Positions 25,803-63,664 of a DNA stretch of 64,000 nt are shown piece after piece; position 1 is the stretch's first letter; each line of letters begins with the position of its first letter. Where the stretch lies: NCBI GenBank assembly GCA_963659735.1, contig CAVKUP010000001.1:1166-65165 (forward strand), written 5' to 3'. The translations under genes were made by a program, and so were the position numbers. Under the pieces are notes generated by a model. It searched no databases and was not told the origin of the DNA. It worked only from the letters and a program-made list of their open reading frames with translations. The DNA is from a bacterium. GTDB lineage: Bacteria; Bacillota_I; Bacilli_A; RF39; UBA660.

Positions 25803-26279
25803 ATGAGAAAAAATTCTAAAGGTTTTACGTTGGTTGAACTACTAGCTATCATTGTTATCTTAGCTATTATCGCCTTAATCACAACACCAGTTATTTTAAA
25901 TGTAATTGAAAATTCAAAATTAAATGCGGCTAAAGATAAAGCTTGGGGAACAATTGATGCTGTAAGAGTTGCTTATGCAACTGCACAAACAGATGAGCAA
26001 GAAATTAGTCTTCCTTATACTGTTAACTTTAACGGTACTAAGGCAGCATGTACAACTGGTAGTTCATGTGTAGGCTACATTGGTAGTACTGAAGTTAAAG
26101 CTAGTGGAGAAAATGCAACAGATGGTTCTGTAGTAATAGCTGAAGATGGTACAATGACTGCAACTTCATTAAAATTTGGAAATTACTATTGTAGTACAAT
26201 ATCTGGTAAAAAAGGCAAATTAAATGCTAACCAAATGTATTGTTCAAGAACATCAGATGATGTTACTCCAACTGCATAA
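25803..26279 (+). CDS. Type IV pilin/pseudopilin with canonical class III signal (KG|FTLVELL)
   Basis: MRKNSKGFTLVELLAIIVILAIIAL carries the prepilin peptidase motif G|FTL[IV]E. There is a C-terminal Cys pair. Confidence 0.7.
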   Translation: MRKNSKGFTLVELLAIIVILAIIALITTPVILNVIENSKLNAAKDKAWGTIDAVRVAYATAQTDEQEISLPYTVNFNGTKAACTTGSSCVGYIGSTEVKASGENATDGSVVIAEDGTMTATSLKFGNYYCSTISGKKGKLNANQMYCSRTSDDVTPTA

Positions 26280-26817: not shown

Positions 26818-26863
26818 GTGGCACATTGCCTTTTTTTTTGATATAATTAAACTGGTGATTAAC

Positions 26864-28666
26864 ATGAATCAAAAAAACATCAGAAATTTTTCAATAATAG
26901 CTCATATAGATCATGGCAAAAGTACAATTGCCGATAGAATATTAGAACTAACAGGTGCTATTAGTGAAAGAGAAAAAAAAGATCAGTTATTAGATAGTAT
27001 GGACATTGAAAGAGAAAGGGGAATTACAATAAAATTAAATGCTGTTCAGCTTCATTATAATTATAAAAATGAAGATTATATAATGCATTTAATTGATACT
27101 CCAGGTCATGTCGATTTTTCATATGAAGTATCTAGAAGTTTAGCTGCTTGTGAGGGTGCTATATTAGTAGTAGATGCCGCACAGGGAATAGAAGCTCAAA
27201 CTCTTGCTAATGTATATTTAGCTATAGAAAACGATTTAAAAATAATTCCAGTAATAAATAAAATAGATCTTCCTAATGCAGATATTCCAAAAGTAAAAAA
27301 AGAGTTAGAAACATTAGGATTTAAAGAAGATGAAATAATTTTAACTAGTGCTAAAACAGGTCAAGGAATAAAAGAATTAATAGAAGCAGTAATTGAAAGA
27401 ATACCATCTCCAGAAGGAGAAAAAAATGATAAATTGAAAGCATTAGTATTTGATAGTCATTTTGATCCATATAAAGGTGTTGTGGTTTTAGTTAGAATTA
27501 AAAGTGGTAGTATTAAATTAAAAGATAGAATAAAATTCATGAAAGCAAATGCAGTCTATGAGGTAACAGAACTTGGTGTAAGTAATCCTCATTTAGAGTC
27601 AAAGAATTCTTTAACTTGTGGTGAAGTTGGTTATTTATGTGCTAGTATAAAAAGTATTAGTGACATTAAAGTAGGAGATACTATTACTTTAGAAAATAAT
27701 CCAGCTGAAGAAAGTCTTCCGGGTTATAAACCAATGAAACCAATGGTATTTTGTGGATTATATCCAATAGAAACAAATAAATATCCGGAGCTAAGGGAAG
27801 CTTTAGAAAAATTAAAGTTAAATGATTCTGCTTTGGAATTTGAACCAGAAACTTCAAAAGCTTTGGGATTTGGTTTTAGATGTGGTTTTCTAGGTTTACT
27901 TCATATGGAAATAATCCAGGAAAGATTAGAAAGAGAATTCAATTTAGATCATATTGCGACAAGCCCTTCTGTAATTTATAAAATAACAAAAACAGATAAT
28001 GAAGTAATTTATATTGATAGTCCAGCTAAAATGCCAGATAGGCAAAAAATAAAACAAATAGAAGAACCATATGTAAAAACAAATATATATGTTCCAACAA
28101 ATTATATAGGACCAATAATGGAACTATGTCAAAATAAAAGGGGAATATATATAAACATGGAATATATTAGTGAGACAAGAGTTAATATTCATTATGAAAT
28201 TCCTTTATCAGAAATAGTTTATAATTTTTTTGATAAATTAAAAAGTTCAACAAAAGGATATGCTTCATTTGATTATGAATTAATAGGTTATAAACCGAGC
28301 GATTTAGTTAAAATGGATATATTATTAAATGGTGAAGTAATTGATGCATTAAGTATAATTGTTCATAAAAATTTCGCATACTCAAGAGGAAAAGCAATAG
28401 TAGAAAAATTAAAAGAAATAATTCCAAGACAATTGTTTGAAGTGCCAATTCAATCAGTAATAGGTTCTAAAGTAATAGCTAGAGCTGATATAAAAGCTTT
28501 AAGAAAAAATGTTTTAGCAAAATGTTATGGTGGCGATATTACGAGGAAAAGAAAATTATTAGAAAAACAAAAAGAAGGCAAAAAAAGGATGAAAATGGTA
28601 GGTAATGTTGAACTTCCAAGTTCTGCATTCTTAGCGGTTTTGAAATTAGATGAAGAAGGTAAATAA
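26864..28666 (+). CDS. lepA: Elongation factor 4 (LepA)
   Basis: [17 protein letters not shown]1 motif; LepA-specific C-terminal domain. Confidence 0.95.
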
Positions 28667-50385: not shown

Positions 50386-50946
50386 GTGGATAATAAACAT
50401 AAAAATGCTTTGATTGGTGCGTTACTTGCTGTTGTATTTGTTATGGCAGTTGGTTATGCAGCGTTTGCACAACAATTAACAATTAATGGTAGTGCCACAA
50501 TTACATCAAAATGGGATGTTCATATGACAAATGATGGTGCAACTGCAACTCCAAGTACAATTATGAATACTATGCCATCTGGTACTGTTAGTGTTGCTGA
50601 AGGTGGTTTAAGTGCTGATTTTACTGCAAGTTTAATTTCTCCTGGAGATAAAGTTACATTTGTTGTTCCAATTAAGAATGCTGGTACAATTGATGCTGTT
50701 TTAGATACTATTACTTTATCTAGTACTACTGCAGGAATGGCCATTGATAATACTGGTTTAACTGCTACAACAGCTGATGGTAGTATTAAATATACTGTAA
50801 CTAGTCCAAGCAAAAATACTTTAGCTAATACAACTGGTTCTGATACAATTACTATTGTTGCTGAATACGTTAACCAAGATAACCAAGGTAATGTTCAAAA
50901 TGTTACGGCTCAACTTACAGTAGTAATGAATTATGTTCAAGCATAG
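50386..50946 (+). CDS. Thr-rich secreted or anchored fibre-subunit-like protein with a pilin-derived N-terminal helix lacking G(-1) and E(+5)
   Basis: KN|ALIGALLAVVFVMAV aligns with the pseudogene RG|FALIELLAVIVLSVV. Beta-rich T/S composition. GTG start after an AAAGGGTGA RBS. Confidence 0.5.
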   Translation: MDNKHKNALIGALLAVVFVMAVGYAAFAQQLTINGSATITSKWDVHMTNDGATATPSTIMNTMPSGTVSVAEGGLSADFTASLISPGDKVTFVVPIKNAGTIDAVLDTITLSSTTAGMAIDNTGLTATTADGSIKYTVTSPSKNTLANTTGSDTITIVAEYVNQDNQGNVQNVTAQLTVVMNYVQA

Positions 50947-51120: not shown

Positions 51121-52701
51121 ATGATTTTAAGAAAACCTTATGCATTTTTTATAAAGTATTTTAAATTATTTCATGCAATTATTGCTTTATTCATTGGTTT
51201 TTTACTTTATAAAAGCTTTACAGTTTATAATTTTTTCAATGTTTATATTGATGATTATAGTTCAGCGCTTACAAGTTTATCTCCAAGAACAATTATAAAC
51301 ATGTATACCTTTTTAACTATACTAATTGTAATAATTTTGACAATTGTTTTATTATCAGTAATGTTTTATAAAAAAAAGCCTAAATCTTTATACATTTATT
51401 CTTTTATTGCTTATATTGCATTACTAGTTTTATTTGGTATAACTTATCCAATCTTACGTGATATTAGTGGTGCAATATTGGATGTTCGTGTATCTAAAGC
51501 CTTAAGAGATTTTTATATGATGTCTTTAGTTATTCAAGCAATAAGTTTAGTTTTATTTATAGTAAGAGCAACTGGTTTTGACATTAAAAGGTTTGATTTT
51601 GGTACAGATTTGCAACAACTTGATATTAATGAAAAAGATAGTGAAGAAATAGAAGTTGCTTTAGAGTTTGATAAAAATAAAACTCAACGTAAAATTAGAA
51701 GTATATTTAGAAATTTTAAATATGTATATGGTGAAAACAAGTTTATAATCAATACAGTTGGTTTAATATTGATTGTAATATTAGGTTTTAATATTTATGT
51801 TAATATAACAGTTTATAAAGCTAAATATAATCAAGGAACTGCTTTTGAAGCTAGTAATATAACCTTAAATGTAAGAGATTCTTATTTAACAAAGCTTAAT
51901 TCCTCAGGAGAGGCATTAACAAGTGATGAAATACTTGTTTTAAAACTGGACATTAAAAGTCAAATTGATAATAATACATTAAATACGGGTCTTGCTACTG
52001 TATTAATTGAAGGAAAATCATATAGTCAAAATAATGAATATGCGAAAGAATTGACAGACCTTGGTGAAGCTTATACAAATCAAACTTTAGATTCAGAATA
52101 TCATAGTTATATTTTAGCGTTCAATATTCCAGAAAAAGATATTGATAAAAAAATGACATTTAAATTTAATGATGATGTTAGTTACATCAAAGGAGAAATT
52201 GGTGCAAAAAATATTTATGTTAAATTAAATCCAATTAATTTAGATAAAAAAATTAAAACAATAAGCAATAAAATGGGTGAACAGCAAAATTATGACGATA
52301 GTATTTTAGAAAGTGCGGATTTAAAAATAAATAGTTATGAAATAAATAATCAGTTTAAATCTGAATATAAATACTGCTATAGCATTAATAAATGTATAGA
52401 TTCATATGAATACATAACTCCAAGTGCAACTGGAAATTATTTTAAAACTTTAATTAAAATTAATGGAGAATTTAATACTGATAATACACAAATAAATAAT
52501 GTGATAATATTTATGAATACATTTGGGACAATTAATTATAAAATAAATGATACTTGGAAAAGTGAAAAAATAAATTCTTCTTCTTTAAAATCAAACTTTG
52601 ATGGATTTTATTTAGAAGTTCCATATGACATTAAAGATGCTACAGAGGTAAATTTTGTATTTAATATACGTAATTTATCTTATAAATATACTTTAAAGTA
52701 A
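51121..52701 (+). CDS. Polytopic membrane protein (4-5 N-terminal TM helices plus a sixth around residue 210) with a ~300-aa extracytoplasmic C-terminal domain
   Basis: AGAGGGGG RBS. No family recognised. Confidence 0.4.
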   Translation: MILRKPYAFFIKYFKLFHAIIALFIGFLLYKSFTVYNFFNVYIDDYSSALTSLSPRTIINMYTFLTILIVIILTIVLLSVMFYKKKPKSLYIYSFIAYIALLVLFGITYPILRDISGAILDVRVSKALRDFYMMSLVIQAISLVLFIVRATGFDIKRFDFGTDLQQLDINEKDSEEIEVALEFDKNKTQRKIRSIFRNFKYVYGENKFIINTVGLILIVILGFNIYVNITVYKAKYNQGTAFEASNITLNVRDSYLTKLNSSGEALTSDEILVLKLDIKSQIDNNTLNTGLATVLIEGKSYSQNNEYAKELTDLGEAYTNQTLDSEYHSYILAFNIPEKDIDKKMTFKFNDDVSYIKGEIGAKNIYVKLNPINLDKKIKTISNKMGEQQNYDDSILESADLKINSYEINNQFKSEYKYCYSINKCIDSYEYITPSATGNYFKTLIKINGEFNTDNTQINNVIIFMNTFGTINYKINDTWKSEKINSSSLKSNFDGFYLEVPYDIKDATEVNFVFNIRNLSYKYTLK

Positions 52702-52739
52702 ATTAATTATATGCTATAATATGTTAGGAGGATAGGAAA

Positions 52740-53363
52740 GTGAAACAAGTTAAATATTTGATTTTTACCTTGATATGCACATTCGTATTTCCAATGATTT
52801 CTCATGGAGAATGTAATTATCAAAGACAAGCGGAACTTTCAAGAATTGCTAGTAATGTTAAAATAAATTATAACTATACGGTAAGTGATACAAGTAATCT
52901 ACAATTTGTCATAAACATTACTAATTTAACTGATGATATTTATTTGTTACAAGATGGTTTAAATATTATATCTGGCACTGGAGAAAAACAAATAAGTGTG
53001 GATTATGGTAACTCTGTTAAATATGACATTTATTCTAATGATTCTTCTTGTAAAGGTGAATACTTACTTACAAAATATATTACTATACCTACCGTTAATT
53101 CATTTGCGGATACTAATTTATGTAAAACTAATCCAAATTTCAAATATTGTCAAAGATGGGGAAGTTATTCTATTAGTTATGATGAATTATTAAATCAATT
53201 TAATTTATATAAAAAAAAATCAGAAAAAAAGAGTGATAGTAAAAATGACACATTTCAAATTTTAATTGATTATTTTAATAATAATAAATTTATGCTTGCG
53301 TTTTTTGGAATAGTTATTGTTTGTACAATCATTTATTATATATTTAACAAGAAAAAGATGTGA
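52740..53363 (+). CDS. Cys-containing secreted protein with signal peptide and C-terminal TM anchor
   Basis: GTG start after an AGGAGG RBS. Signal peptide ...PMISHG|E. C-terminal FMLAFFGIVIVCTIIYYIF TM helix. Confidence 0.4.
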   Translation: MKQVKYLIFTLICTFVFPMISHGECNYQRQAELSRIASNVKINYNYTVSDTSNLQFVINITNLTDDIYLLQDGLNIISGTGEKQISVDYGNSVKYDIYSNDSSCKGEYLLTKYITIPTVNSFADTNLCKTNPNFKYCQRWGSYSISYDELLNQFNLYKKKSEKKSDSKNDTFQILIDYFNNNKFMLAFFGIVIVCTIIYYIFNKKKM

Positions 53364-53371
53364 GGGATATT

Positions 53372-56185
53372 ATGAAAAAATTAAAAAAAATATTTGCTTT
53401 TATAATTATAAGCTTATCTATTTTTCCTGTGCTTGTGTTTGCTGTAGAAAGTGGGGGTACTGGTGAGAGTGGAGGTCAATCAAATACTGGTTATGGTGGC
53501 CAAGCTGCTTGTGGATATTTTAGTAATTTTGATCCCCCTATTAATTTCGCTAACACGGGAGCTGGATATAAAACATTTTCTGCATATAAGTTTGATCTAG
53601 TTTATAAAACTAAAAATGGCAAACGTGAAATTTTAAAAACTGTAGTTACATATGATGATTATTCATGGGCTACTCGAGGCTATTATTATACTAGAGTTGG
53701 ACCATCTATTGATAGATATGTTGCAGCCCTTAAATCGGTTTATGGTAGTGGTAATGTAATATATAAAACATCTGGTGGGGATAATACGCTTTTTGGTTTG
53801 GCTCGCAAACTTTCAAAGGGCGATACAATTGATAGGCTTTTTAACAATAATAAGTTAACAGAATATAATCTAATAAAAAATTATATAACAAGTACTGATG
53901 GTTTTGGCGTTTCTGCAAAAGATTTACAACGTCCTCAGGATACTAACCCCGGCAACTTTGATTCTTATGGTTACAGAATACTTATTCAAAAAATACAACT
54001 TTATGATACTTGTGATGAGGCTGCTACTTTTGACGCAGGTTATGGCACTAAGGGAGATGCTGCTTTGTCGGCACCAAGAAAAGAAGCTGCAAATGCAGAT
54101 TCCGCACTTATGAAAAATTTAAAAAATAGTATCGGTTGGGCAACGGCTAATTATCAAGTTGAAATGTCATCTGTAGTTCATGTTGGTAGTACTGAACTAT
54201 GGACAACAAAAGATGATATTGGTATTAGTAAAGCAAACAATAACGATGTAAATACACTTAAAGGTACAAATTATAATTGTAGTGCTGGTGACAGTGCTTG
54301 TATGAGAAGATGGGGAGTGGCAATTAGAAATTTGAGAAGTACATTTGCTGATGAAAATAACGGCTTAGGCTATAATATTTTGTGGTTTGCGACTGATGCC
54401 TTCGCTAGCGATTATTCAATTGATGCGGCATGTGTTAATTGTAATAGTAAAATTTCTGATAATAAATCTTATTTTATTCAAGATACGACTAATTGGACAG
54501 CCATAAAAAATAGTAAAGGATATTTAGAAGGTAGTAGTGAAGATTATGCAAAGAATGTACAAAAATATTTTTACAAAAAGGAAAATGGTTTTCCAGATAC
54601 ATACTGTAGAGAAGAATATACAGTTAAGTTTCCAAATGCTAATAATACGATTCAAGTCGCAACTGGTAGATATTTTTTGTTAAATGCATCTGATGAAGAT
54701 GAAAAAAAATACTCTGCAATCCCTAATTTTAAACCAATTTCAGTTACAAAAACGAGAATTTGTAAAGGTGGTAACTTAGAAAAATTCAAAAATGCATCTG
54801 AAGGCAGTTTCAAAAATACTGGAAAAGTTTATTTTAAATACATAGAAAATTATAATGGTAGTAAGTATACAATGAGCCAAAAACAAGAACTAAAAGCTAA
54901 TAGTGACTCTAAGGTCACGTCAACTATTAATGGTGATACACTTACAATGTCTATTACAAAAACATACACTTTACCTACTGACTTTTATAGATATGTAAGA
55001 AAAAAAGATGGCCTATCTGTTAAACAAATAACAAATGACCAAAAAGATAGTGGTGAATATGAGGATATAGGAATTTCTAATTTACCCGTTTCATTTAATA
55101 ATTATAGTTCTTATGCTGGAGATGTTAAATTGTCTTATGAATTACCATCTCATAATGAAGATCCATATACATATATAAAAGCTGCTTATGAAGCAGGTAA
55201 TGGTGCTAATAATTATTTTAAATCTAAGAACAATGAATTTAATAATATTTATAAAAAGTATTCTAATAATCAAACAATGACTGATGAAGAAAAAAGCGAT
55301 TTAACTCAAAGTGCTTGTGCGAAAATGTATGGTTATGGGACAAGTGGATTTAATGAATGTGCTAAAAAAAGGCAGACAAACAAAATAGGTGATACTGATT
55401 CAAATTGTTATACTATTAATAAACAAATTGATTCAAATCAATCAACTAGTGGATATTCTTGTATAGTTAGTAGTCCTAACAAATGCCGTTATGACAAGAG
55501 TACAGGAAAGTTTTATAACAGTGCTGGTAAAGAAATATCTGAAACTGATTATAACAGTGGTAAATGTGATTCTGATGATGGCGGAACTGATGGCGGTGGA
55601 ACGTGTAAAATAGTTTATAATCATAAAACTGATTCAACTGATTATTATGGACCTAATGGTGAAAAAGTAAGTAAAGATGAATATAATAAACTTTGTCCAT
55701 GTCCAAGCTCTTGCGAATATGGATGCTGTCCATCTGGAGAATGTGCTCCTATGCCAAGAAAGAATGGTATGATTGTCTGCCCTATAGGTGGCAAAAGAGT
55801 TATTTATAGAACAATTGATTTAATACAGCCATTTCCAGGTCAAAGTTCAACAAATAGAGCAACCGGAAGTAACTGGTGTTCATATGACATTAAAACGCAA
55901 AAGATAAATTGTAAATGGAATAACAATGTTTCTAAAACTTACATTTTAAATGAAGGTAAAACAATACATAGTGACAACCATGTTTTGTATCAAGTAACTT
56001 TAGATTCTAAAACTATTAGTAATGTAAGGAACTATAACAAAAAAAATAAATATGATGATTTCACTTTAAAATGTAAAAATAATGGTAAAGCTTGTATCAG
56101 TACATTCTTAAAAGAGGTAGTATCTACAACAGGGAAATGTGCAAATAAAAGTACTGCAAGTCAATTTAACAGTTGTAATAGTTAG
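53372..56185 (+). CDS. Large (about 937 aa) Cys-rich secreted protein with Gly-rich N-terminus. Candidate pilus-associated adhesin or substrate.
   Basis: Signal peptide MKKLKKIFAFIIISLSIFPVLVFA. About 40 Cys, concentrated in the C-terminal half (CPCPSSCEYGCCPSGECAP). No sortase motif. Confidence 0.5.
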   Translation: MKKLKKIFAFIIISLSIFPVLVFAVESGGTGESGGQSNTGYGGQAACGYFSNFDPPINFANTGAGYKTFSAYKFDLVYKTKNGKREILKTVVTYDDYSWATRGYYYTRVGPSIDRYVAALKSVYGSGNVIYKTSGGDNTLFGLARKLSKGDTIDRLFNNNKLTEYNLIKNYITSTDGFGVSAKDLQRPQDTNPGNFDSYGYRILIQKIQLYDTCDEAATFDAGYGTKGDAALSAPRKEAANADSALMKNLKNSIGWATANYQVEMSSVVHVGSTELWTTKDDIGISKANNNDVNTLKGTNYNCSAGDSACMRRWGVAIRNLRSTFADENNGLGYNILWFATDAFASDYSIDAACVNCNSKISDNKSYFIQDTTNWTAIKNSKGYLEGSSEDYAKNVQKYFYKKENGFPDTYCREEYTVKFPNANNTIQVATGRYFLLNASDEDEKKYSAIPNFKPISVTKTRICKGGNLEKFKNASEGSFKNTGKVYFKYIENYNGSKYTMSQKQELKANSDSKVTSTINGDTLTMSITKTYTLPTDFYRYVRKKDGLSVKQITNDQKDSGEYEDIGISNLPVSFNNYSSYAGDVKLSYELPSHNEDPYTYIKAAYEAGNGANNYFKSKNNEFNNIYKKYSNNQTMTDEEKSDLTQSACAKMYGYGTSGFNECAKKRQTNKIGDTDSNCYTINKQIDSNQSTSGYSCIVSSPNKCRYDKSTGKFYNSAGKEISETDYNSGKCDSDDGGTDGGGTCKIVYNHKTDSTDYYGPNGEKVSKDEYNKLCPCPSSCEYGCCPSGECAPMPRKNGMIVCPIGGKRVIYRTIDLIQPFPGQSSTNRATGSNWCSYDIKTQKINCKWNNNVSKTYILNEGKTIHSDNHVLYQVTLDSKTISNVRNYNKKNKYDDFTLKCKNNGKACISTFLKEVVSTTGKCANKSTASQFNSCNS

Positions 56186-56195
56186 GAGGTAAAAC

Positions 56196-56597
56196 ATGAA
56201 AGAGTCATTTTGGGGTATATTTGTTGTGTTTCTAGGTATTACGTCAATATTTTTCATAGTTTTATTTCAAAACTTAACTAATACTGATGAACACAACTCA
56301 CAACTTTTAAAAGAAGTTACAGAAGCTGCAATGTGGGATGCATTTGATTATTCTGCATATAGAACTAATGGAACAGTAAGAATAAACAGAGAAAAGTTTG
56401 TAGAAAACTTCGTTAGAAGATATGCAGAAAGTGCAAGTAAATCAAGACAATATGAAATAAAATTTTACGATGTAAATGAACAACCGCCTAAGGTTAGTTT
56501 AAGCGTTACCAGTGGAGTTGTTGGTGTTAATGGTAGCACTGAAGTTACATTTAATTTAAAAAATAGTATTGATGCTATTTTAGAAACACCATATTAA
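56196..56597 (+). CDS. Pseudopilin-like protein with short leader MKESFWG|hydrophobic
   Basis: AGGAGG RBS. N-terminal TM helix directly after a 7-aa leader ending in Gly. Confidence 0.45.
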   Translation: MKESFWGIFVVFLGITSIFFIVLFQNLTNTDEHNSQLLKEVTEAAMWDAFDYSAYRTNGTVRINREKFVENFVRRYAESASKSRQYEIKFYDVNEQPPKVSLSVTSGVVGVNGSTEVTFNLKNSIDAILETPY

Positions 56598-56617
56598 AGA
56601 AGAAAAGAGGAGATAAA

Positions 56618-57676
56618 ATGGATAATTTAGCAATGACATTTAAAAGATTTTTAAAAAATAAAAATGTAGTTACTATTATTGGGGTAGTAATAATACTAAT
56701 TTTACTTTATGTAGGCTATAGTACTCAAATCAACAAAGCTGTTGAACCAGTTGAGATCCCTGTGGCTACTCAAACTATTCAGCCAAGAACTGAAATTACT
56801 GATGACATGGTTAAGCTTATTGATATGCCAAATGTATCGTTAAGTGATAATGTTATTAGATCTAAAGCACAAATTGTAGGAAAATATTCCAATGTTAATT
56901 CAGTAATACCTGAGGGAAGTATGTTTTATACTGATACGGTAATTAGTAAAGATGAACTTCCAGATGCGGCATTTACTAAAGTTAAATCTGGAGAAGTAGT
57001 TTATAATTTCCCAGTTGATATGGAAAGCACTTATGGAAATTCAATTTTCCCTGGAAATAAAATTGACATCTACATGAAAGTTGGAGATGGAACAGATGAA
57101 AAAATTATGCTTGGTAAATTAATAGAAAATGTAGAAGTACTTGCTGTAAAAGATTCTTCAGGTAAGGCAGTATTTGAAAACACAAGTGAAGAAAGAACAC
57201 CAGCAATGCTTATATTTGGATTAAAAAGTAAACTTTATACTTTACTAAAAAAAGCATCATACATGGATAGTTTAGGTGTAGAATTGTATCCAGTACCACA
57301 CGGAAGTAAAGTTGATACAACGGGAACAACTGAAGCATCTACACAAGAATTAGTAGATTATATTGAGGCTCATTCAATTAGCTTAGCTGAAACTGAAAGT
57401 ACAAATACAACGGATGAATTATTACCTACAGTAAAAGAAACAGGAGGAACTCCAAATACTGTAACAATCACATTCCCTAGTGGATGTAATAAAACATATA
57501 CATGTTCATATATAAAAGATAATGGTAAAACAGTTAAAGTAACTAAAACAACTCAAGATTTAATTTATACAACTAATGGTACATTAATTGCTACAGTAAC
57601 AGAGAAAGATGGTACAACTCATGTTTTAACAACTAATATTCCACTTACTAATTCAACTACTACAACAGGACAATAG
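56618..57676 (+). CDS. cpaB: CpaB/RcpC-like Flp pilus assembly protein (SAF domain)
   Basis: N-terminal TM helix, then a SAF-type segment QPRTEITDDMVKLIDMPNVSL...IVGKYSNVNSVIPEGSMFYTDTVISKDE. Thr-rich C-terminus. Confidence 0.65.
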   Translation: MDNLAMTFKRFLKNKNVVTIIGVVIILILLYVGYSTQINKAVEPVEIPVATQTIQPRTEITDDMVKLIDMPNVSLSDNVIRSKAQIVGKYSNVNSVIPEGSMFYTDTVISKDELPDAAFTKVKSGEVVYNFPVDMESTYGNSIFPGNKIDIYMKVGDGTDEKIMLGKLIENVEVLAVKDSSGKAVFENTSEERTPAMLIFGLKSKLYTLLKKASYMDSLGVELYPVPHGSKVDTTGTTEASTQELVDYIEAHSISLAETESTNTTDELLPTVKETGGTPNTVTITFPSGCNKTYTCSYIKDNGKTVKVTKTTQDLIYTTNGTLIATVTEKDGTTHVLTTNIPLTNSTTTTGQ

Positions 57677-57678
57677 TT

Positions 57679-59145
57679 ATGAATAATGTTTTTGACCAAA
57701 TAGATTTTGGGGCACTAAAACCTTATTTGGAAGATGATGATATAACTGATATTTCTTATGATAATGGTGGACAAATACATTTAAAAACCTTATCTAAAGG
57801 AATATTTAGAATAGAAAATCCAGCAATTAATAATGCATTTATGGAAAAGCTAGCGTTTCAATGTTCAAATGTTATGGGAAAAACTTTTAACATGGCGCAT
57901 CCATTTCTGGATGCTGAAAGTGCAGAGTTACGTTTAGCTTTTATCCATGAATCAGTTTCATCAAATGGGATAGCTTGTGTTTTACGTAAAACACCAGCTA
58001 AAATACGTTTGCAAAAAGAAAAAATAGTTGCTGACAGATATGTTGAATTAGATATAATTGATTTTTTAGAACAATGTGTTTTAGGCCACTGTAATATTAT
58101 TGTATGTGGTGAAACAGGTTCTGGTAAAACGGAACTTGTAAAATATTTGGCTAGTAAGATAGCTGAAAATGAAAAAATTATTACAATTGAAGATACATTG
58201 GAATTACATTTGGATAAAATTTTTCCACATCGTGATGTAGTTTCACTTAAAACTAATAACATCGCATCTTATACTGATATTTTGGAAGCATGTATGAGAC
58301 AAAATCCTAAATGGATTTTACTATCAGAGGTTCGTAGTGCTGAAGCTGTATTAGCTGTTCGTAACTCTATATCATCTGGTCACTATATTTTATCAACAAT
58401 ACATGCTGATAAGGCTGTTTCCATTCCAAACCGTATGTACAGTTTATTAGAAACAAATCAAGATTTAGATCAATTTATGAGTTCTATTTGTAGATATGTT
58501 CAAATTGGAATATATGTTAGAGGTTATCAAGATAAAGCTACTAAACGTTTTAAAAGGGAAATTGCTGAAGTTACAGAATTTTATGTAACAAGTGATACTA
58601 ATGAAGCAAAACATAATATCATTTATAGAAAAGGTGCTGACGGTAAAGTTATTAGAAATAATCCAAGCCCATATTTAATAGATTACCTAGAAGTTCAGGG
58701 AGTATTCTTACCTAAAGAATTACAAAATATGGCTGGTGATACGTATGTTACTAATGATTCAATGAAAAATAGTATTGAAGGTAATTCTGAAAATATTGAT
58801 AAAACATTTGAAGGTAATGAAAATAATTCAATTGATACTTATTTAAAAACTTCTACAAATGCTGTGCAAATAAATGAAATTAATTCAAATATTTCTACAG
58901 AAAATACATCAAGTATTTTTCAAAATGAAGTTAGTTTAAATAGTTCTGCAGATAATGTTATGTCAAATGTTTCTGTGAACAGTCAATCAAATGATTCCAT
59001 AAACATTGATAATAGTTTTAGTTCAAACATTCCTGTAGAAAATCATATACATGATATTTCTATGAATGAAAATGCAAACAATTCTGTGAATAATTTTGTA
59101 CATGATACTTCAAGTATAAATAATACAGAAAATTTATTTGAATAG
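57679..59145 (+). CDS. tadA: CpaF/TadA-family type II/IV secretion ATPase with an unusual about 130-aa Asn/Ser-rich C-terminal tail
   Basis: Walker A CGETGSGKTE, Walker B WILLSEVR, His-box region. VirB11/TadA-type N-domain. Confidence 0.85.
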   Translation: MNNVFDQIDFGALKPYLEDDDITDISYDNGGQIHLKTLSKGIFRIENPAINNAFMEKLAFQCSNVMGKTFNMAHPFLDAESAELRLAFIHESVSSNGIACVLRKTPAKIRLQKEKIVADRYVELDIIDFLEQCVLGHCNIIVCGETGSGKTELVKYLASKIAENEKIITIEDTLELHLDKIFPHRDVVSLKTNNIASYTDILEACMRQNPKWILLSEVRSAEAVLAVRNSISSGHYILSTIHADKAVSIPNRMYSLLETNQDLDQFMSSICRYVQIGIYVRGYQDKATKRFKREIAEVTEFYVTSDTNEAKHNIIYRKGADGKVIRNNPSPYLIDYLEVQGVFLPKELQNMAGDTYVTNDSMKNSIEGNSENIDKTFEGNENNSIDTYLKTSTNAVQINEINSNISTENTSSIFQNEVSLNSSADNVMSNVSVNSQSNDSINIDNSFSSNIPVENHIHDISMNENANNSVNNFVHDTSSINNTENLFE

Positions 59146-59155
59146 GAGGAGCAAT

Positions 59156-60061
59156 ATGACATTTTTAATATTTTTAATAGTTTTAATAATAGCTATATTT
59201 ATTGTACTATATCGAAATAATAGTAATTCTAATAATGTTTACAAGTTTCTTAATAAACAAGTTGGTGTAATTTACGATAAGTACGCTCCTTATTCATTTA
59301 AAGTGGTTAGGGAAAAAGTTAAGGAATTAGGTCAAGAATATACTCCCAGACAGTATACAATTCAAATAATTGTATTTGCAGTAGGAGCAGCAGTTGTTAC
59401 ATATTTATATTTTTATAATATTGTTATTTCTTTAGTATATGCTGTAATTGCTGTATCTATTATTCCTTATTTAACTTATTTAAGATGTAAAAGATTATAT
59501 AGTGAATTTATATTTGAACAAATTCAAGTATATACAACTAATACAATTATGGAATTTGCTACTACTCAGTCTTTTGTTAAAGCATTGGAAGGTGTATATG
59601 CCTCAGATGTTTTAGAAGATCCGGTTAAAGCAGATGTTAAAATGATGATTGACATGGCTTATGAAAATGGTACTATTGATCAATCTTTAAATTATATGAA
59701 TAGTAAATATGATTATTATATTGTAAGAAATATGCATCAATTATTCTTACAAATTACTAATGAAGGTTCAAGAGATGCAGGTGAATCTTTAGAAAACATG
59801 AGTCAAGATATTGATATGCTTGTAGAAGGAGTTTATAGAGATAGAATTGATAGAGCAGCTTTCCATAAAAAATTCTTACAATTTGGTATTATTTTATACT
59901 TAATGGTTATGCTTGTTCAATTTATGTTAGGCTTAGAAACATATAATGAAATGTTAGAAAGCTGGTGGGTAAAATTACTTTTACACGGTATTATATGGCT
60001 TAATACGTATTTCATTTTATCAGGTGAAAAATATTATAATGAAGATGTGGGGGCGGAATAA
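59156..60061 (+). CDS. TadB-like polytopic membrane platform protein (T2SS-F type)
   Basis: AGGAGGAG RBS before the ATG at 59156. TM helices flank a central cytoplasmic domain. Position directly after tadA. Confidence 0.55.
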   Translation: MTFLIFLIVLIIAIFIVLYRNNSNSNNVYKFLNKQVGVIYDKYAPYSFKVVREKVKELGQEYTPRQYTIQIIVFAVGAAVVTYLYFYNIVISLVYAVIAVSIIPYLTYLRCKRLYSEFIFEQIQVYTTNTIMEFATTQSFVKALEGVYASDVLEDPVKADVKMMIDMAYENGTIDQSLNYMNSKYDYYIVRNMHQLFLQITNEGSRDAGESLENMSQDIDMLVEGVYRDRIDRAAFHKKFLQFGIILYLMVMLVQFMLGLETYNEMLESWWVKLLLHGIIWLNTYFILSGEKYYNEDVGAE

Positions 60062-60855
60062 TGAGTATAGGATTAACATTTATAATAATTGCAATTATTC
60101 TTATATTTTTACTTGAATATAATAATCATTTTAGCTCAAACAAATTCATAAGAGAAACAGAGCCTTACTTTAGAACTTTAATGGAAGATGACTATGATTT
60201 TCTACTTAAAGTAAGATATGGTGGCGACGTTGATGTTAATAAAATGTATGGGCTTAGAGTACGTAATGGAATTGTTACTATAATTTTTTGTTTATTTATA
60301 TTTATGTCTAAATTAACTTTTGCTTATATATTACTTTCATTACTACTGGGTTTTGGAATGTTTAAGTTATCATATATGCAATTGAATAGTTATTATAAGC
60401 AAAATTTACATAAAATTAATTTAATGTTACCTTACTATTTAAAGGGACTAGAAATTTTAGTTCAGCACTACACAGTTCCAGTCGCACTTTCCAGATCAAT
60501 AGAAACAGCACCTGAAATTTTTAAATCTGGTTTAAGAAAATTGGTTGCTAAAATTGATGCTGGTGATGCTTCTGTTCAACCGTATATGGACTTTGCTCAT
60601 GAATATCCAGTTAGAGATTCTATGAGAATGATGAGGCTTCTTTATAGATTGGGTTTAGGTAGTCAAGAAAACAAACAAGAACAGTTATTAATGTTTTCAA
60701 GAACCATTTCAACTTTACAAAATAAGGCACGTGAACAAAAGTATAAAGAACGTTTAGAAAAAATGGAAAATAAAACAATGATTATGCTATTTGGTACTGG
60801 TGGAGGTATCTTAGGATTCTTACTTTTAGCTATGATGATGATGATGAACTTTTAG
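60061..60855 (+). CDS. TadC-like polytopic membrane platform protein
   Basis: Translationally coupled. Topology similar to the preceding ORF. Confidence 0.55.
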   Translation: MSIGLTFIIIAIILIFLLEYNNHFSSNKFIRETEPYFRTLMEDDYDFLLKVRYGGDVDVNKMYGLRVRNGIVTIIFCLFIFMSKLTFAYILLSLLLGFGMFKLSYMQLNSYYKQNLHKINLMLPYYLKGLEILVQHYTVPVALSRSIETAPEIFKSGLRKLVAKIDAGDASVQPYMDFAHEYPVRDSMRMMRLLYRLGLGSQENKQEQLLMFSRTISTLQNKAREQKYKERLEKMENKTMIMLFGTGGGILGFLLLAMMMMMNF

Positions 60856-60938
60856 TGTAAAGTAAGGAAAATATATAGAAAGTTTAATTTATATGTGTTA
60901 TAATTTAGTTAATAATGAAGATAAGGAGGTGTTAATAT

Positions 60939-61175
60939 ATGAAGGAAGCTGCTGGTGAAGCAAACTTAACAGTTGTTGCTATTATTTTAATTGGTGTTGT
61001 TGTTGCAGTGGTTACTCCACTTGTTTCTAATTTAATGAGCTCTACAGCAAAAAAAGCTTGTTGTACAGATGCTGGAGGTGTTTGGAAAGGTGGCTCTTGC
61101 CAAGCAGGAAGTAGTTCCTACAGTGCACAAGATTATAATACTTGTGTTAATAATTCTACTAAAAATGCTAAATAA
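60939..61175 (+). CDS. Small Flp-sized pilin-like protein, leader MKEAAG|EANLTVVAIILIGVV, Cys-rich C-terminus
   Basis: 78 aa. AGGAGGTG RBS. TM helix, then KKACCTDAGG...GSCQAG...CVNN. Followed by a terminator. Confidence 0.5.
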   Translation: MKEAAGEANLTVVAIILIGVVVAVVTPLVSNLMSSTAKKACCTDAGGVWKGGSCQAGSSSYSAQDYNTCVNNSTKNAK

Positions 61176-61178
61176 TAT

Positions 61179-61202
61179 GCTTGCTTAAAAGCAAGTTTTT
61201 CT
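61179..61202 (+). terminator. Terminator/attenuator after the small pilin-like gene
   Basis: cttgc-ttaaaa-gcaag plus T5. Confidence 0.6.
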
Positions 61203-61224
61203 TAGTATAAATGGGGTGAGGTAA

Positions 61225-61722
61225 ATGCGTGAAAGTATAGGAAGTACATTTTTATATAATATAATCATACTATTTGTAATAATTGTTATTGGTTTACTTT
61301 CAGCTACTATAAGTTATTATAAAGCATTTAAAGTTAATGAAAGATTACTTTATTCTATAGATAAATTTGAAGGGTATAATAAATCTTCAAAAAATGAAAT
61401 GGAACAGTATTTGTCATCTGTTGGATATTCATATGAAGAAACTGGTCAAAAAGAGTGTGCAAAAAGTAAAAACGGTGGCACTTTAATTATGTCAACGACT
61501 TCAAAATATTTATATTGTGTTTATTATCACAAAGATGATAGAGGACTAAAGGAAGAAAATATAATCAATGGTGATGAGGAACCAATATATTATAATTATA
61601 GTATTACAAGTTATATATATGTTGATTTGCCTATTGCTGGTAAATTTAAAGTTCCTGTTTATACTAAAGGAGAGAGAATATATAATTTCTCAGATCATCA
61701 AAGTCAGGGGGATAAGATATGA
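61225..61722 (+). CDS. TadE-like minor pilin/pseudopilin paralogue 1 (leader MRESIG|STFLY...)
   Basis: N-terminal TM helix. Shares YKAFKV, YCVY and D[LV]PI[AV]G[KD]F motifs with the next ORF. Confidence 0.45.
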   Translation: MRESIGSTFLYNIIILFVIIVIGLLSATISYYKAFKVNERLLYSIDKFEGYNKSSKNEMEQYLSSVGYSYEETGQKECAKSKNGGTLIMSTTSKYLYCVYYHKDDRGLKEENIINGDEEPIYYNYSITSYIYVDLPIAGKFKVPVYTKGERIYNFSDHQSQGDKI

Positions 61723-62207
61723 AAGAAGCGATTGCTAATGCTGGGGTATTTAATCTTGTAATTATATTTGTAATTATTTTACTAGCATTCTTTGTTGGTT
61801 CGCTTTCTTATTCTAAGGCTTTTAAAGTAAAAAATAAGATTGTTGAAGAAATTGAAAAAGATCAAGAATATGTAGTAACAGGAAAAAATTCTACCGAAGT
61901 AAGAGTAGAACAATGGTTAAAAAATATTGGATATAGAGTAAATACTACTAATCAGTCAAATGCAGCTTTATGTGACAGTAAAGTTAGTGGAAATGGTGGT
62001 TCTGCTGGAGTTTTAGTTAACAAAAATAGCAATTATCAATACTGTGTATATGAATTCAATACATGTGAACAAAATTCTGATAAATCAAAATGTGGTAAAT
62101 ATTATAAAGTAATTGCTTATATGTATTTTGATGTTCCAATTGTTGGAGATTTTTTAAAGATTCCTATTAAAGGGGAAACAATGATATTTAATGAAGTCCA
62201 TAGTTAG
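61719..62207 (+). CDS. TadE-like minor pilin/pseudopilin paralogue 2 (leader MKEAIANAG|VFNLV...)
   Basis: Paralogue of the 61225 ORF, with an overlapping start/stop. Confidence 0.45.
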   Translation: MKEAIANAGVFNLVIIFVIILLAFFVGSLSYSKAFKVKNKIVEEIEKDQEYVVTGKNSTEVRVEQWLKNIGYRVNTTNQSNAALCDSKVSGNGGSAGVLVNKNSNYQYCVYEFNTCEQNSDKSKCGKYYKVIAYMYFDVPIVGDFLKIPIKGETMIFNEVHS

Positions 62208-62219
62208 GAGGCGAATTAA

Positions 62220-63227
62220 ATGAATGTAATAATTGTAAATAAATATCGTGATGCACTTGTCAATTTAGATATTGATATTATAAAAAAATTAGATGGTGAA
62301 TTTACTGTAGAAGAAATTGTCAAAACATTTCAATCATTTTATTTTAATAAGATGATTTTAGATATTACAGCTTTAAAGAATTATAAAAATATTAAAACAT
62401 TACAAGAACTTTCTTTATCCTTAGATATGGATAAATTAATTTTACTTTTAGATGGTTCTGCTGAAACATCTAATCCTGAATATTTGTCAGACTTAATATC
62501 TATGAGAATTTATAATTTTACAATGAATGTTGAGGGCGTTAAATGGCTATATGAACACCCTAATAGTTACCGTGACGTCGCACAATATCATCAATTGGAT
62601 ACGACACACGAAACAACTTATTCACAACCTGCAACGAATGTTACATACACTGAAATTAGAAAGACATCTATTATATCATTTAAAGATGTAACTTCGGGAG
62701 CAGGGGCAACGACTCTTACATATATTGCAAAAAAACAGCTTGCTAAAAATTATAATGTTGTTGCTATTGAGGTAGATAAACATGACTTTATGTATTATGA
62801 TGAAGATAAAATGTTTAGTGTTTCAAATAATGAATTAGGTAACACCATTTCAAAATACAATGGAATGGATGTTATATTAATTGATGCTAATAAAAGTACA
62901 GCGGCTGAAGGATTGGCTACCGAAAATATTTATCTAATAGAGCCATCAAAAATAAAATTAAATAAATTATTAGCTCGTGATTCTAAAGCGTTTGAAAAAT
63001 GTAAAAATAAAAAAATAGTTTTAAATCAGTGCATGTTGGATGAAAAAGATGTGTCTGATTTTGAAATGGAACTTGGTCTCGATGTTTTTTATAAAATGCC
63101 ACCTTTAAATGACCAAAGTGATGAAAATAAAGCATTAAATAATTTTTTAGTAAAGCTTGGGTTTTATAAACAGGGTAATGTTGATAGTGTTGGAGATAAA
63201 AAGGGTATTATGGGTTTATTTAAATAA
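62220..63227 (+). CDS. TadZ/CpaE-like protein: N-terminal receiver-like domain plus a ParA/MinD-fold domain with degenerate Walker A (TSGAGATT)
   Basis: IISFKDVTSGAGATTLTYIAK aligns with the MinD IVVTSGKGGVGKTT box, but both Lys are lost. Confidence 0.55.
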   Translation: MNVIIVNKYRDALVNLDIDIIKKLDGEFTVEEIVKTFQSFYFNKMILDITALKNYKNIKTLQELSLSLDMDKLILLLDGSAETSNPEYLSDLISMRIYNFTMNVEGVKWLYEHPNSYRDVAQYHQLDTTHETTYSQPATNVTYTEIRKTSIISFKDVTSGAGATTLTYIAKKQLAKNYNVVAIEVDKHDFMYYDEDKMFSVSNNELGNTISKYNGMDVILIDANKSTAAEGLATENIYLIEPSKIKLNKLLARDSKAFEKCKNKKIVLNQCMLDEKDVSDFEMELGLDVFYKMPPLNDQSDENKALNNFLVKLGFYKQGNVDSVGDKKGIMGLFK

Positions 63228-63313: not shown

Positions 63314-63664
63314 ATGAATTTATTTAATACATTAGCGTACTGTGATAGTGTAATTACTGGAGGAATTCCTGATGGAATTGGTAACATTGTTCATTTAGTT
63401 GTTAGAGCTATTCAAGTTGCTGTTCCAATTTTATTAATTATATGGGGAATGCTTGATTTTGCTAAAGCTATTATTGGACAAAAAGAAGATGATATTAAAG
63501 CTGGACAAAAAATCTTTGTCAAAAGGTTAATTGCTGCTGTTGTAGTATTCCTAGTAGTTACTATTGTTCAACTTGTTATCAATTTAGCTGCTAGTATTGG
63601 TGGAACTAGTAATGAAGCGTCAACTGCATGGGATTGTGCAAGTGAATTAATAAATGGTAAATAA
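63314..63664 (+). CDS. Small two-TM membrane protein, paralogue A
   Basis: AGAGGAGG RBS. ...VPILLIIWGMLDFAKAI... hydrophobic hairpin. Confidence 0.35.
   Translation: MNLFNTLAYCDSVITGGIPDGIGNIVHLVVRAIQVAVPILLIIWGMLDFAKAIIGQKEDDIKAGQKIFVKRLIAAVVVFLVVTIVQLVINLAASIGGTSNEASTAWDCASELINGK

Follow-up and report, generated by a model that had tools for sequence, protein, structure and literature searches.

A conserved N-terminal signature shared by four predicted pilin-like proteins of a Tad-like gene cluster in low-GC gut Bacillota

The gene cluster and its relatives

The 64-kb stretch of contig CAVKUP010000001.1 analysed here (the window; GC content 27%) comes from a low-GC, spore-forming gut lineage of the Bacillota and is occupied, from position 51121 to its end, by tightly packed genes that all lie on the plus strand. 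Judged from sequence, a cluster within this run looks like a Tad-like type IV filament system, as a FlaI/CpaF-type ATPase (G), a CpaB-like protein (F) and two polytopic proteins (H and I) are clustered with four candidate filament subunits (E, J, K and L). The subject of this work is the N-terminal sequence that these four proteins share. An earlier reading of the same DNA, hereafter the original prediction, had described it as a locus-specific class III-like signal, M[KR]E[SA]x(1-4)G, which would imply a dedicated or relaxed-specificity prepilin peptidase encoded outside the window. The features on which the argument rests are as follows; a slash in a protein sequence marks the putative cleavage position.

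E, 56196..56597, plus strand: DUF5411 protein of 133 amino acids (aa), pilin-like module; start MKESFWG/IFVVFLG
F, 56618..57676, plus strand: CpaB/RcpC-like bitopic protein, 352 aa
G, 57679..59145, plus strand: secretion ATPase of the FlaI/archaeal GspE/CpaF(TadA) group, 488 aa
H, 59138..60061, plus strand: 307 aa, ~4 transmembrane (TM) segments; candidate platform protein in the TadB position
I, 60061..60855, plus strand: 264 aa, ~4 TM segments; second candidate platform protein, in the TadC position
Promoter-like site, 60876..60904, plus strand: TG-extended -10 immediately 5' of J, a consensus pattern match
J, 60939..61175, plus strand: candidate major pilin, 78 aa; start MKEAAG/EANLTVVAIILIG, variable Cys-containing C-terminus
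Terminator-like hairpin with T-run, 61179..61196, plus strand: immediately 3' of J
K, 61225..61722, plus strand: minor-pilin-like protein, 165 aa; start MRESIG/STFLYN, then a hydrophobic helix
L, 61719..62207, plus strand: K paralogue, 162 aa; start MKEAIA/NAGVFN
M, 62220..63227, plus strand: cytoplasmic protein, 335 aa, conserved at the cluster end; TadZ/CpaE position of Tad loci

Our comparison covers ~160 related loci, namely 80 species-level genome loci, examined out of 174 confirmed matches in GTDB species-representative genomes, and 80 distant metagenomic loci. All of them are low-GC (22-37%) and belong to Bacilli-like lineages. Complete chromosomes that carry the cluster include OZ007022.1 and OZ007025.1. 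The order C-D-E-F-G-H-I-J-K(-L)-M-N, in which C, D and N are further genes described below, is kept across the 80 species-level genomes and in far more divergent metagenomic variants. The nearest public loci come from metagenome-assembled genomes of uncultured gut 'Bacilli' with genomes of ~1.3-1.5 Mb, and include Firmicutes bacterium CAG:822, Candidatus Coprosoma (placed by NCBI in Bacillota incertae sedis) and Candidatus Faecisoma. Several low-GC contigs that carry the Bacilli-type cluster are filed in Sphaerochaetaceae, Muribaculaceae, Bacteroidaceae, Oscillospiraceae or Vescimonas bins (L004, L026, L030, L034, L040, L047 and others), and are probably mis-binned.

A shared start at the N-terminus of four proteins

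The four open reading frames (ORFs) begin where the original prediction had placed them and carry the N-termini it had read: MKESFWGIFVVFLG at 56196 (E), MKEAAGEANLTVVAIIL at 60939 (J), MRESIGSTFLYNIIIL at 61225 (K) and MKEAIANAGVFNLVIIF at 61719 (L). Each ATG is preceded by a Shine-Dalgarno sequence (AGGAGG at 56196, AAGGAGG at 60939, GGGGTGAGG at 61225 and GGGGGA at 61719), and public gene calls, made independently, begin at the same methionine. A six-frame scan of the window for M[KR][ED][SAG] followed by at least 36 open codons returns four in-frame sites, which are exactly E, J, K and L, and in each of them a very hydrophobic 15-mer follows the motif. Across the ~160 related loci, the motif stands at the start of 291 of the 385 ORFs that belong to the four families, and at the start of 0 of 1991 other ORFs.

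Could such a start arise without being a signal at all, from AT-rich codon bias or a translation-initiation preference, with the glycine a coincidence? The genome is 27% GC, and MK starts, or Lys-Glu after the methionine, are common in low-GC Firmicutes. However, the absence of the motif from all other ORFs and its restriction to four sites in the whole window argue against this explanation, as does conservation that persists down to ~41% identity over hundreds of sequences. The four genes moreover use different codons for residues 2-4 (AAA GAG TCA in E, AAG GAA GCT in J, CGT GAA AGT in K and AAA GAA GCG in L), including CGT for arginine and both GAG and GAA for glutamate, and the constraint must therefore lie at the protein level. 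The shared motif is real and far beyond chance; an origin by coincidence has a vanishingly small probability and is effectively refuted.

The conserved element is a fixed hexapeptide (a heptapeptide in DUF5411) that ends in a small residue, with the family-specific consensus M-[KR]-[ED]-[SAG]-hydrophobic-(W)-[G>A>S], and it is followed by a hydrophobic stretch of ~20 residues. Glycine holds the small-residue position in 76-99% of members across the families, and the remainder have mostly alanine, serine or threonine. The claim of a class III-like leader therefore stands in so far as a shared, conserved start precedes a hydrophobic helix, but the variable x(1-4) spacer does not survive: it is an artefact of choosing Gly9 in L, and the true spacing is fixed and puts the small residue at 6 (at 7 in DUF5411). 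Alignment of the N-termini of homologues, which the original prediction had named as its test, leaves the conserved glycine in place, as it occupies this position in 79/80 unique J homologues, in 204 of 246 K/L sequences (alanine in 32, serine in 8) and in 199 of 261 DUF5411 sequences (alanine in 21, serine in 16, threonine in 14). The four sequences also bear out the observation that neither the type IVa pattern G/FTLIE nor the Flp pattern G/xxxxEY fits, as Glu+5 and Tyr+6 are absent in all of them.

Conservation within the families

The small protein J has 867 relatives in the database, none of them named and none with a Pfam domain. All 120 of 120 J homologues start with MKEA[AS]GE. Among 80 unique homologues, residues 1-12 (MKEA[AST]GEA[NS][LM]TV) are almost invariant and the C-terminal half varies freely; a conserved N-terminus joined to a variable C-terminus is also found in pilins, and this supports the pilin reading. 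Glu3 is present in 79/80, the glutamate directly after Gly6 (Glu7, +1) is invariant, and the pair Gly6-Glu7 is still invariant in those J homologues that have alanine for Glu3. One J variant of 51 aa reads MKAATGETTLTI. A signal peptidase I cut of J after ...SSTA/KK was considered and rejected, as residues -1 and -3 are not conserved in homologues. Three features make J our candidate for the major subunit: its size, its place in the cluster, and a promoter-like site and a terminator-like hairpin of its own. A major pilin gene that is over-expressed within an operon would typically have such signals.

K and L are 33% identical (BLASTP, E = 2e-25) without gaps at the N-terminus, and a gapless alignment of K, L and 250 homologues has its conserved small residue at position 6. 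The pattern M[KR][EDQ][SAG]x[GAS] fits 112/120 K homologues, position 3 is glutamate in 204 and aspartate in 13 of the 246 sequences, and distant K/L variants start with MR[ED][AS][FIV]GG. The homologous small residue in L is Ala6, for which more distant L homologues have Gly6; Gly9 of L is not conserved, and relatives have M, F, N, L or V there. A polar residue lies at position 12 within the hydrophobic segment of both proteins (codons 61258-61260 in K and 61752-61754 in L), and is asparagine in 207/246 and lysine, glutamine, tyrosine or glycine in distant variants. Residue 12 would be +6 from the putative cleavage site, and Flp has its Glu5-Tyr6 at about that place.

E matches the DUF5411 family (PF17424) over residues 1-132 on profile positions 1-133, with 182 bits vs a cut-off of 30. 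A search of 1.8 billion cluster representatives gives 569 DUF5411 matches at the level of 50%-identity clusters, and 146/149 DUF5411 representatives match from residue 1. In the 261 unique DUF5411 N-termini, M1 is invariant, K2 is found in 218, E3 in 188, serine, alanine or threonine at position 4 in 260, W6 in 226 and G14 in 257. In ~20% of members Glu3 is replaced by tryptophan, lysine or glutamine.

Predicted fold and comparison with known signals

AlphaFold2 models built on family alignments are confident for both E (pLDDT 87; helix 2-48 and a three-stranded sheet) and K (pLDDT 84; helices 2-47 and 53-66 and an antiparallel sheet). According to these models, E and K would have the 'lollipop' of type IV pilins, an N-terminal helix of ~47 residues that carries a beta-sheet. 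Pilins and pseudopilins are among the structural neighbours of the models, and Streptococcus sanguinis PilB is among those of K.

Profiles of known signals do not recognise these proteins. The N_methyl models PF07963/TIGR02532 match none of E, J, K and L at E <= 0.1, TadE (PF07811) matches none of K, L and E at the same threshold, and Flp (PF04964) does not match J, in which EANLTV follows Gly6. The archaeal model PF04021/Class_IIIsignal matches none of the four, and their residue -2 is A, I or W instead of a basic residue. As a positive control, the canonical prepilin encoded at 25803-26279 in the window is found by PF07963 with E = 8e-8 and by TIGR02532 with 19.1 bits vs a cut-off of 16.3.

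By a general definition, a class III signal has a short hydrophilic or neutral leader that ends 'invariably' in Gly or Ala (Pelicic, 2023, PMC10191384). The four families have leaders of 6-7 residues that end in Gly or Ala in 79/80 J, 236/246 K/L and 220/261 DUF5411 sequences. They also have the hydrophobic stretch of 20-25 residues within a long helix, with the lollipop seen in the models of E and K. Glu+5, which is frequent in such signals and not obligatory, is lacking, as position +5 is F in E, T in J, Y in K and F in L when counted from Ala6. The four proteins appear to have a start signal that differs from those of all described pilin classes.

The predicted assembly machinery

G is matched by PF00437 (T2SSE) with 99 bits, and its best matches in the PDB are FlaI (4ii7), archaeal GspE (2oap) and CpaF (8rkd). 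It would accordingly be a member of the CpaF/TadA-FlaI group, in which it may fall in either a Tad or an archaeal clade. The C-terminus of G (~58730-59145) is an Asn/Ser-rich low-complexity tail of ~140 residues; among relatives, G measures 360-523 aa and the length of the tail varies widely. F scores 28.7 bits against PF16976 (RcpC; cut-off 28.8) and 41 bits against TIGR03177 (CpaB; E = 1e-10, cut-off 71).

H and I, like 23 diverse homologues of H searched at E <= 1, have no T2SSF match. Neither H nor I finds anything in Pfam, NCBIfam or the PDB, and hhalign detects no paralogy between the two. Only synteny, in that they follow the ATPase, and their topology suggest H and I as candidate platform proteins. 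M, which is kept in 66 + 23 loci, has no sequence match in Pfam, NCBIfam or the PDB, and M and 16 homologues give no hit to ParA, CbiA or TadZ_N at E <= 1. To call M TadZ-like is a guess from its position and from a degenerate P-loop-like SGAGATT.

DUF5411 cargo and the neighbourhood of the cluster

The DUF5411 copy in the window is a bare module of 133 aa. In the family at large, DUF5411 is usually an N-terminal module: extra sequence follows it in 133/149 representatives, and 16/149 are <=160 aa long. The extensions include Big_2, Listeria-Bacteroides repeats, an ALK/LTK glycine-rich domain, Peptidase_M15 and a PT-HINT pretoxin domain (relatives P0177, P0203, P0165, P0162, P0129 and P0157). 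Modular pilins and polymorphic toxins are built in this way, and the PT-HINT cargo, a hallmark of polymorphic toxins, suggests pilus-borne effectors. An orphan DUF5411-Peptidase_M15 gene (L165:10001-13793) lies away from any assembly cluster, beside a Metallophos/Rce1-like pair. Such a pair is also found at the left end of the window, where the Rce1-like gene occupies 684-1388 on the minus strand; the adjoining Metallophos gene is seen in L084.

Further genes that belong to the cluster or lie near it are listed here.

B, C and D, 51121..56185, plus strand: conserved ORFs upstream in the cluster
B: 526 aa, 5 TM segments, no family match
C: 207 aa, signal peptide and C-terminal TM segment, no family match
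D: 941 aa, secreted, no family match
N, 63314..63664, plus strand: 116 aa, 2 TM segments; first of several paralogues that weakly resemble a Gram-positive type IV secretion system (T4SS) pilin (VirB2-like)
Second N paralogue, from ~63686 and running off the window end, plus strand: copy seen in locus L001
Canonical type IV prepilin, 25803-26279, plus strand: MRKNSKG/FTLVELL, between ValS (22629-25157) and LepA (26855-28666)

C and a large secreted D-like protein stand before DUF5411 even in distant variants, from which B is absent. On the upstream side, gyrB/gyrA, RNase J, MiaB and CotE are encoded near the cluster. Just upstream of the cluster, at 50386-50946 on the plus strand, lies a gene for a 186-aa protein with the N-terminus MDNKHKNALIGALLAVVFVMAVGYAAFAQQ, which we take to resemble TasA/camelysin SipW-type signals. 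This protein has no match to any profile hidden Markov model searched and is poorly conserved, being found in 2 loci only.

N is matched by PF18895 with E = 0.035 in the window, and longer paralogues in relatives reach 1.3e-5 to 2.5e-4. N-like proteins give 147 matches in 64 loci (for example L009:17068-18819 and L116:16520-17921), have 2-3 TM segments and always follow M; some carry a long secreted N-terminal domain. In distant relatives, T4SS genes directly adjoin the cluster, encoding TrbL/VirB6, a VirB3-sized protein with two TM segments, a VirB4-like ATPase, a CHAP+SpoIID hydrolase and VirD4 (L116:17935-20326; L142:18068-20065; L161:1-7534; L169:17530-19655). The close relatives of the window keep, of those T4SS genes, the VirB2-like N paralogues only.

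Where is the prepilin peptidase?

The window holds no prepilin peptidase gene, as the original prediction had stated: its polytopic ORFs were checked, and none is of the A24 or GxGD type. Those considered for this role proved to be Rce1-like, an MraY-type glycosyltransferase, Bax1-I and FtsW. At the 80 genome loci the recurrent polytopic ORFs were likewise set aside as Na/Ca exchanger, CbiQ, Gate, Rce1-like, ABC-2, holin and MntP proteins. B, H and I have no GxGD-type motif that would make one of them a cryptic aspartyl peptidase, and B is missing in distant variants. The regular expressions G.GD.[KR] and [GAS].[GAS]D.[KR] returned nothing relevant in the polytopic ORFs of all 160 loci. Polytopic-ORF clustering, Pfam searches and active-site patterns together reveal no A24-like gene within 10 kb of the cluster in the ~160 loci, and a TadV/CpaA peptidase, as known from Tad systems, is present neither in the window nor in the flanks of these loci. 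The proposal of a dedicated or relaxed-specificity peptidase has thus gained no direct support.

In some cases one peptidase serves more than one system; MSH loci have none, and tadV may stand alone (Denise et al, 2019, PMC6668835). Because peptidases are often shared or encoded apart, a locus free of them is unremarkable by itself (Denise et al, 2019, PMC6668835). The canonical prepilin at 25803 stands alone, with no pilus assembly genes nearby; since the window encodes it, the organism very probably has a prepilin peptidase, of the PilD/ComC type and encoded elsewhere in the genome.

Is the putative leader cut or retained?

We think it probable, with considerable room for doubt, that the four proteins are subunits of a Tad-like filament whose leader is cut by a peptidase encoded elsewhere, shared or dedicated. 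The filament would consist of one Flp-sized major pilin (J), the paralogous minor pilins K and L, and the DUF5411 minor pilin E. Each subunit would be made with a family-specific class III-like signal of 6 residues (7 in DUF5411), and the hydrophobic stretch of ~20 residues would form the N-terminal half of the ~47-residue helix. Once this helix is inserted in the membrane, the leader peptide would be left at the cytoplasmic face, where an A24-type prepilin peptidase from elsewhere in the genome would cut it off behind the small residue. To extract the subunits and polymerise them would then fall to the ATPase G together with the CpaB-like F and the polytopic proteins H and I. The membrane topology, the identity of the major subunit and the roles of H, I and M are inferred, and the cleavage and its site are predicted. 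Residue -1 of a peptidase site is expected to show the very preference, G>A>S/T, that is found here at a single fixed position immediately ahead of the helix (rule in Pelicic, 2023, PMC10191384).

Several observations weigh against this reading. Mean entropy in K/L is ~0.95 bit over positions 1-6 vs ~2.0 over positions 7-11, and in DUF5411 ~1.05 over the leader vs 2.1 over the residues after it. Conservation is thus some two-fold stronger in the leader than in the next five or six residues, the reverse of classical prepilins. A generalist peptidase that requires Gly-1 alone would not explain this conservation, which leaves room for a retained N-terminus. MKE[SA] is tied to residue 1 and the small residue lies at 6 or 7, so that the conserved part stands at no fixed distance from the putative scissile bond, and a few members have serine or threonine, even leucine or isoleucine, at the small-residue position. 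After a cut, an acidic residue near the N-terminus would be found only in J (Glu+1); uncut, the four families have Glu/Asp3 in common. The net charge of the leader is zero and J, K and L are more positive after the helix than before it, a charge distribution that gives weak support for the N-in topology that processing would require. All other components of the system are tightly clustered and the peptidase gene alone is not there, and sequence searches detect no similarity of H and I to TadB/C or of M to TadZ.

Would a subunit that is never cut fit these data better? The M-K/R-E start would then be the mature N-terminus of subunits of a Tad-like machine that needs no peptidase. Glu3 would take over from the classical charge pair of Glu5 and N-terminal amine and neutralise, in the core of the filament, the protein's own Lys2 or the N-terminus of a neighbour, and the glycine would serve as a helix hinge. 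The excess conservation of positions 1-6/7, the anchoring of the motif at residue 1 instead of at the small residue (6 vs 7), the acidic position 3 in every family and the lack of a peptidase gene in or near ~160 clusters all count for this alternative. By the methionine aminopeptidase rule, a lysine at position 2 means that the initiator methionine is kept, which also counts in its favour, and as the net charge of the peptide is zero, it may not have to be removed for the helix to leave the membrane. DUF5411 could in that case present adhesins and PT-HINT pretoxins at the surface of a pilus that is coupled to a Gram-positive T4SS. However, all characterised type IV filaments need prepilin processing (Pelicic, 2023, PMC10191384). 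The G>A>S/T preference at a fixed position fits a peptidase site and is not required of a hinge, the canonical prepilin makes a peptidase in the genome probable, and Glu3 is the residue that gives way, to alanine in some J homologues with Gly6-Glu7 unchanged and to tryptophan, lysine or glutamine in DUF5411. We therefore regard retention of the peptide by assembled subunits as unlikely. If true, it would be the first case of type IV filament assembly that needs no prepilin peptidase.

E, K and L, and perhaps J, might instead be bitopic signal-anchor proteins that do not polymerise and form a membrane-proximal scaffold, or a part that spans the cell wall, either in the Tad-like machine or in the conjugation-like type IV secretion apparatus beside it. 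Their shared N-terminus would then serve to dock a common partner in the cytoplasm, for instance the ATPase or M. The VirB2-like, TrbL/VirB6, VirB4-like, CHAP/SpoIID hydrolase and VirD4 genes that abut the cluster in relatives are in line with this, and in L161 DUF5411, a CpaB-like gene and one K/L gene follow VirB4, the hydrolase and VirD4 in a locus without G, H, I, J and M. K and L have a strongly basic segment right after the helix (SYSKAFKVKNK), and the positive-inside rule could thus favour an N-out orientation. Yet an N-terminal helix of ~47 residues with a sheet is the architecture of pilins, and J, which has the size of Flp, combines an invariant helix with a variable tail. The order of an ATPase, two genes in platform position, a pilin and two pseudopilins mirrors tad loci, and the fusion of DUF5411 to surface cargo (Big_2, Listeria-Bacteroides, PT-HINT) needs C-out display away from the membrane. 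Such a scaffold seems to us distinctly improbable.

Relation to known systems

Among known systems, Tad/type IVc pili and their relatives in archaea appear nearest to the cluster in function and gene order. The ATPase, the general class III signal definition and the pilin-like fold agree with such a system; the Flp, TadE, N_methyl, T2SSF and TadZ tests were negative. With the Tad/Flp systems (Aggregatibacter tad and Caulobacter cpa, and in monoderms those of Bifidobacterium and Micrococcus) the cluster has in common a CpaF/TadA-FlaI ATPase, a putative CpaB/RcpC-like protein, two polytopic genes after the ATPase, and a very small pilin followed by two paralogous pseudopilin-sized genes. It has no secretin, as expected in a monoderm, and in Tad systems, too, the peptidase need not sit in the locus. 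In contrast to Tad, J lacks an Flp match and G/xxxxEY, K, L and E lack TadE, H and I lack T2SSF and M lacks TadZ/ParA. The fixed, conserved MKE..G leader also sets the cluster apart, as do B, C, D and N, which have no Tad counterparts, and the T4SS genes that adjoin it in relatives.

Archaeal pili, Epd (EppA-dependent) pili and the archaellum resemble the cluster in several ways: among PDB entries the ATPase matches FlaI best, and the short signals do without Glu+5 and accept small residues besides Gly at -1. Directly after its glycine, J has a polar residue that never changes (Glu+1), and Epd pilins have Gln+1. Unlike archaeal signals, the four starts have no basic residue at -2 and no Class_IIIsignal match, and here the host is bacterial and a putative CpaB-like component is present. 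The ComG pseudopilus of Bacilli offers a monoderm host, a peptidase encoded elsewhere and the possibility of very short, Glu-containing, net-neutral leaders; Bacillus subtilis ComGC starts with MNEKG/FTLVE, and a glutamate in a short neutral leader thus has a precedent. Com pilins carry the FTLxE N_methyl motif, however, which the four proteins do not, and the best matches of the ATPase are not ComGA-like.

In the modular pilins PilB and PilC of S. sanguinis, as in DUF5411, a pilin-like N-terminal module precedes the cargo. The DUF5411 module differs in lacking an N_methyl motif, and its cargo includes PT-HINT. An operon with CpaF, PilC/GspF and DUF5411, predicted in the gut Clostridia Roseburia, Ruminococcus and Eubacterium, has been flagged as an uncharacterised 'secretion-related' system (Miller et al, 2022, PMC9523054). 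It shares with our cluster a CpaF-type ATPase and DUF5411 in gut Firmicutes, and has likewise been recognised computationally only. From its description, its platform protein is PilC/GspF, which H and I are not, and no substrates or N-terminal motif are described for it. Divergent DUF5411 proteins, followed in search of this Clostridia variant, led to short contigs or to more low-GC loci. A search of the literature on pili of this lineage, or on Tad together with conjugation in Firmicutes, gave nothing specific. We know of no earlier description of the shared conserved leader or of the pilin nature of the four proteins.

Implications

Searches with the N_methyl, Flp and TadE motifs, which are used to find type IV filaments, all miss this cluster, although low-GC gut Bacillota carry it widely (569 DUF5411 clusters, 867 J relatives, 174 GTDB matches). 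Its subunits can be found by the signature M-[KR]-[ED]-[SAG]-x-[GAS] at residue 1 with a hydrophobic helix behind it. If the leader is cut, these proteins would form a new class of prepilin peptidase substrates with unusually strong constraints on the leader; if it is retained, processing would cease to be a universal rule among type IV pilins. The DUF5411 cargo (adhesin, cell-wall hydrolase, pretoxin) and the T4SS genes that adjoin the cluster in relatives suggest that these abundant uncultured gut bacteria use it for adhesion or for contact-dependent delivery.

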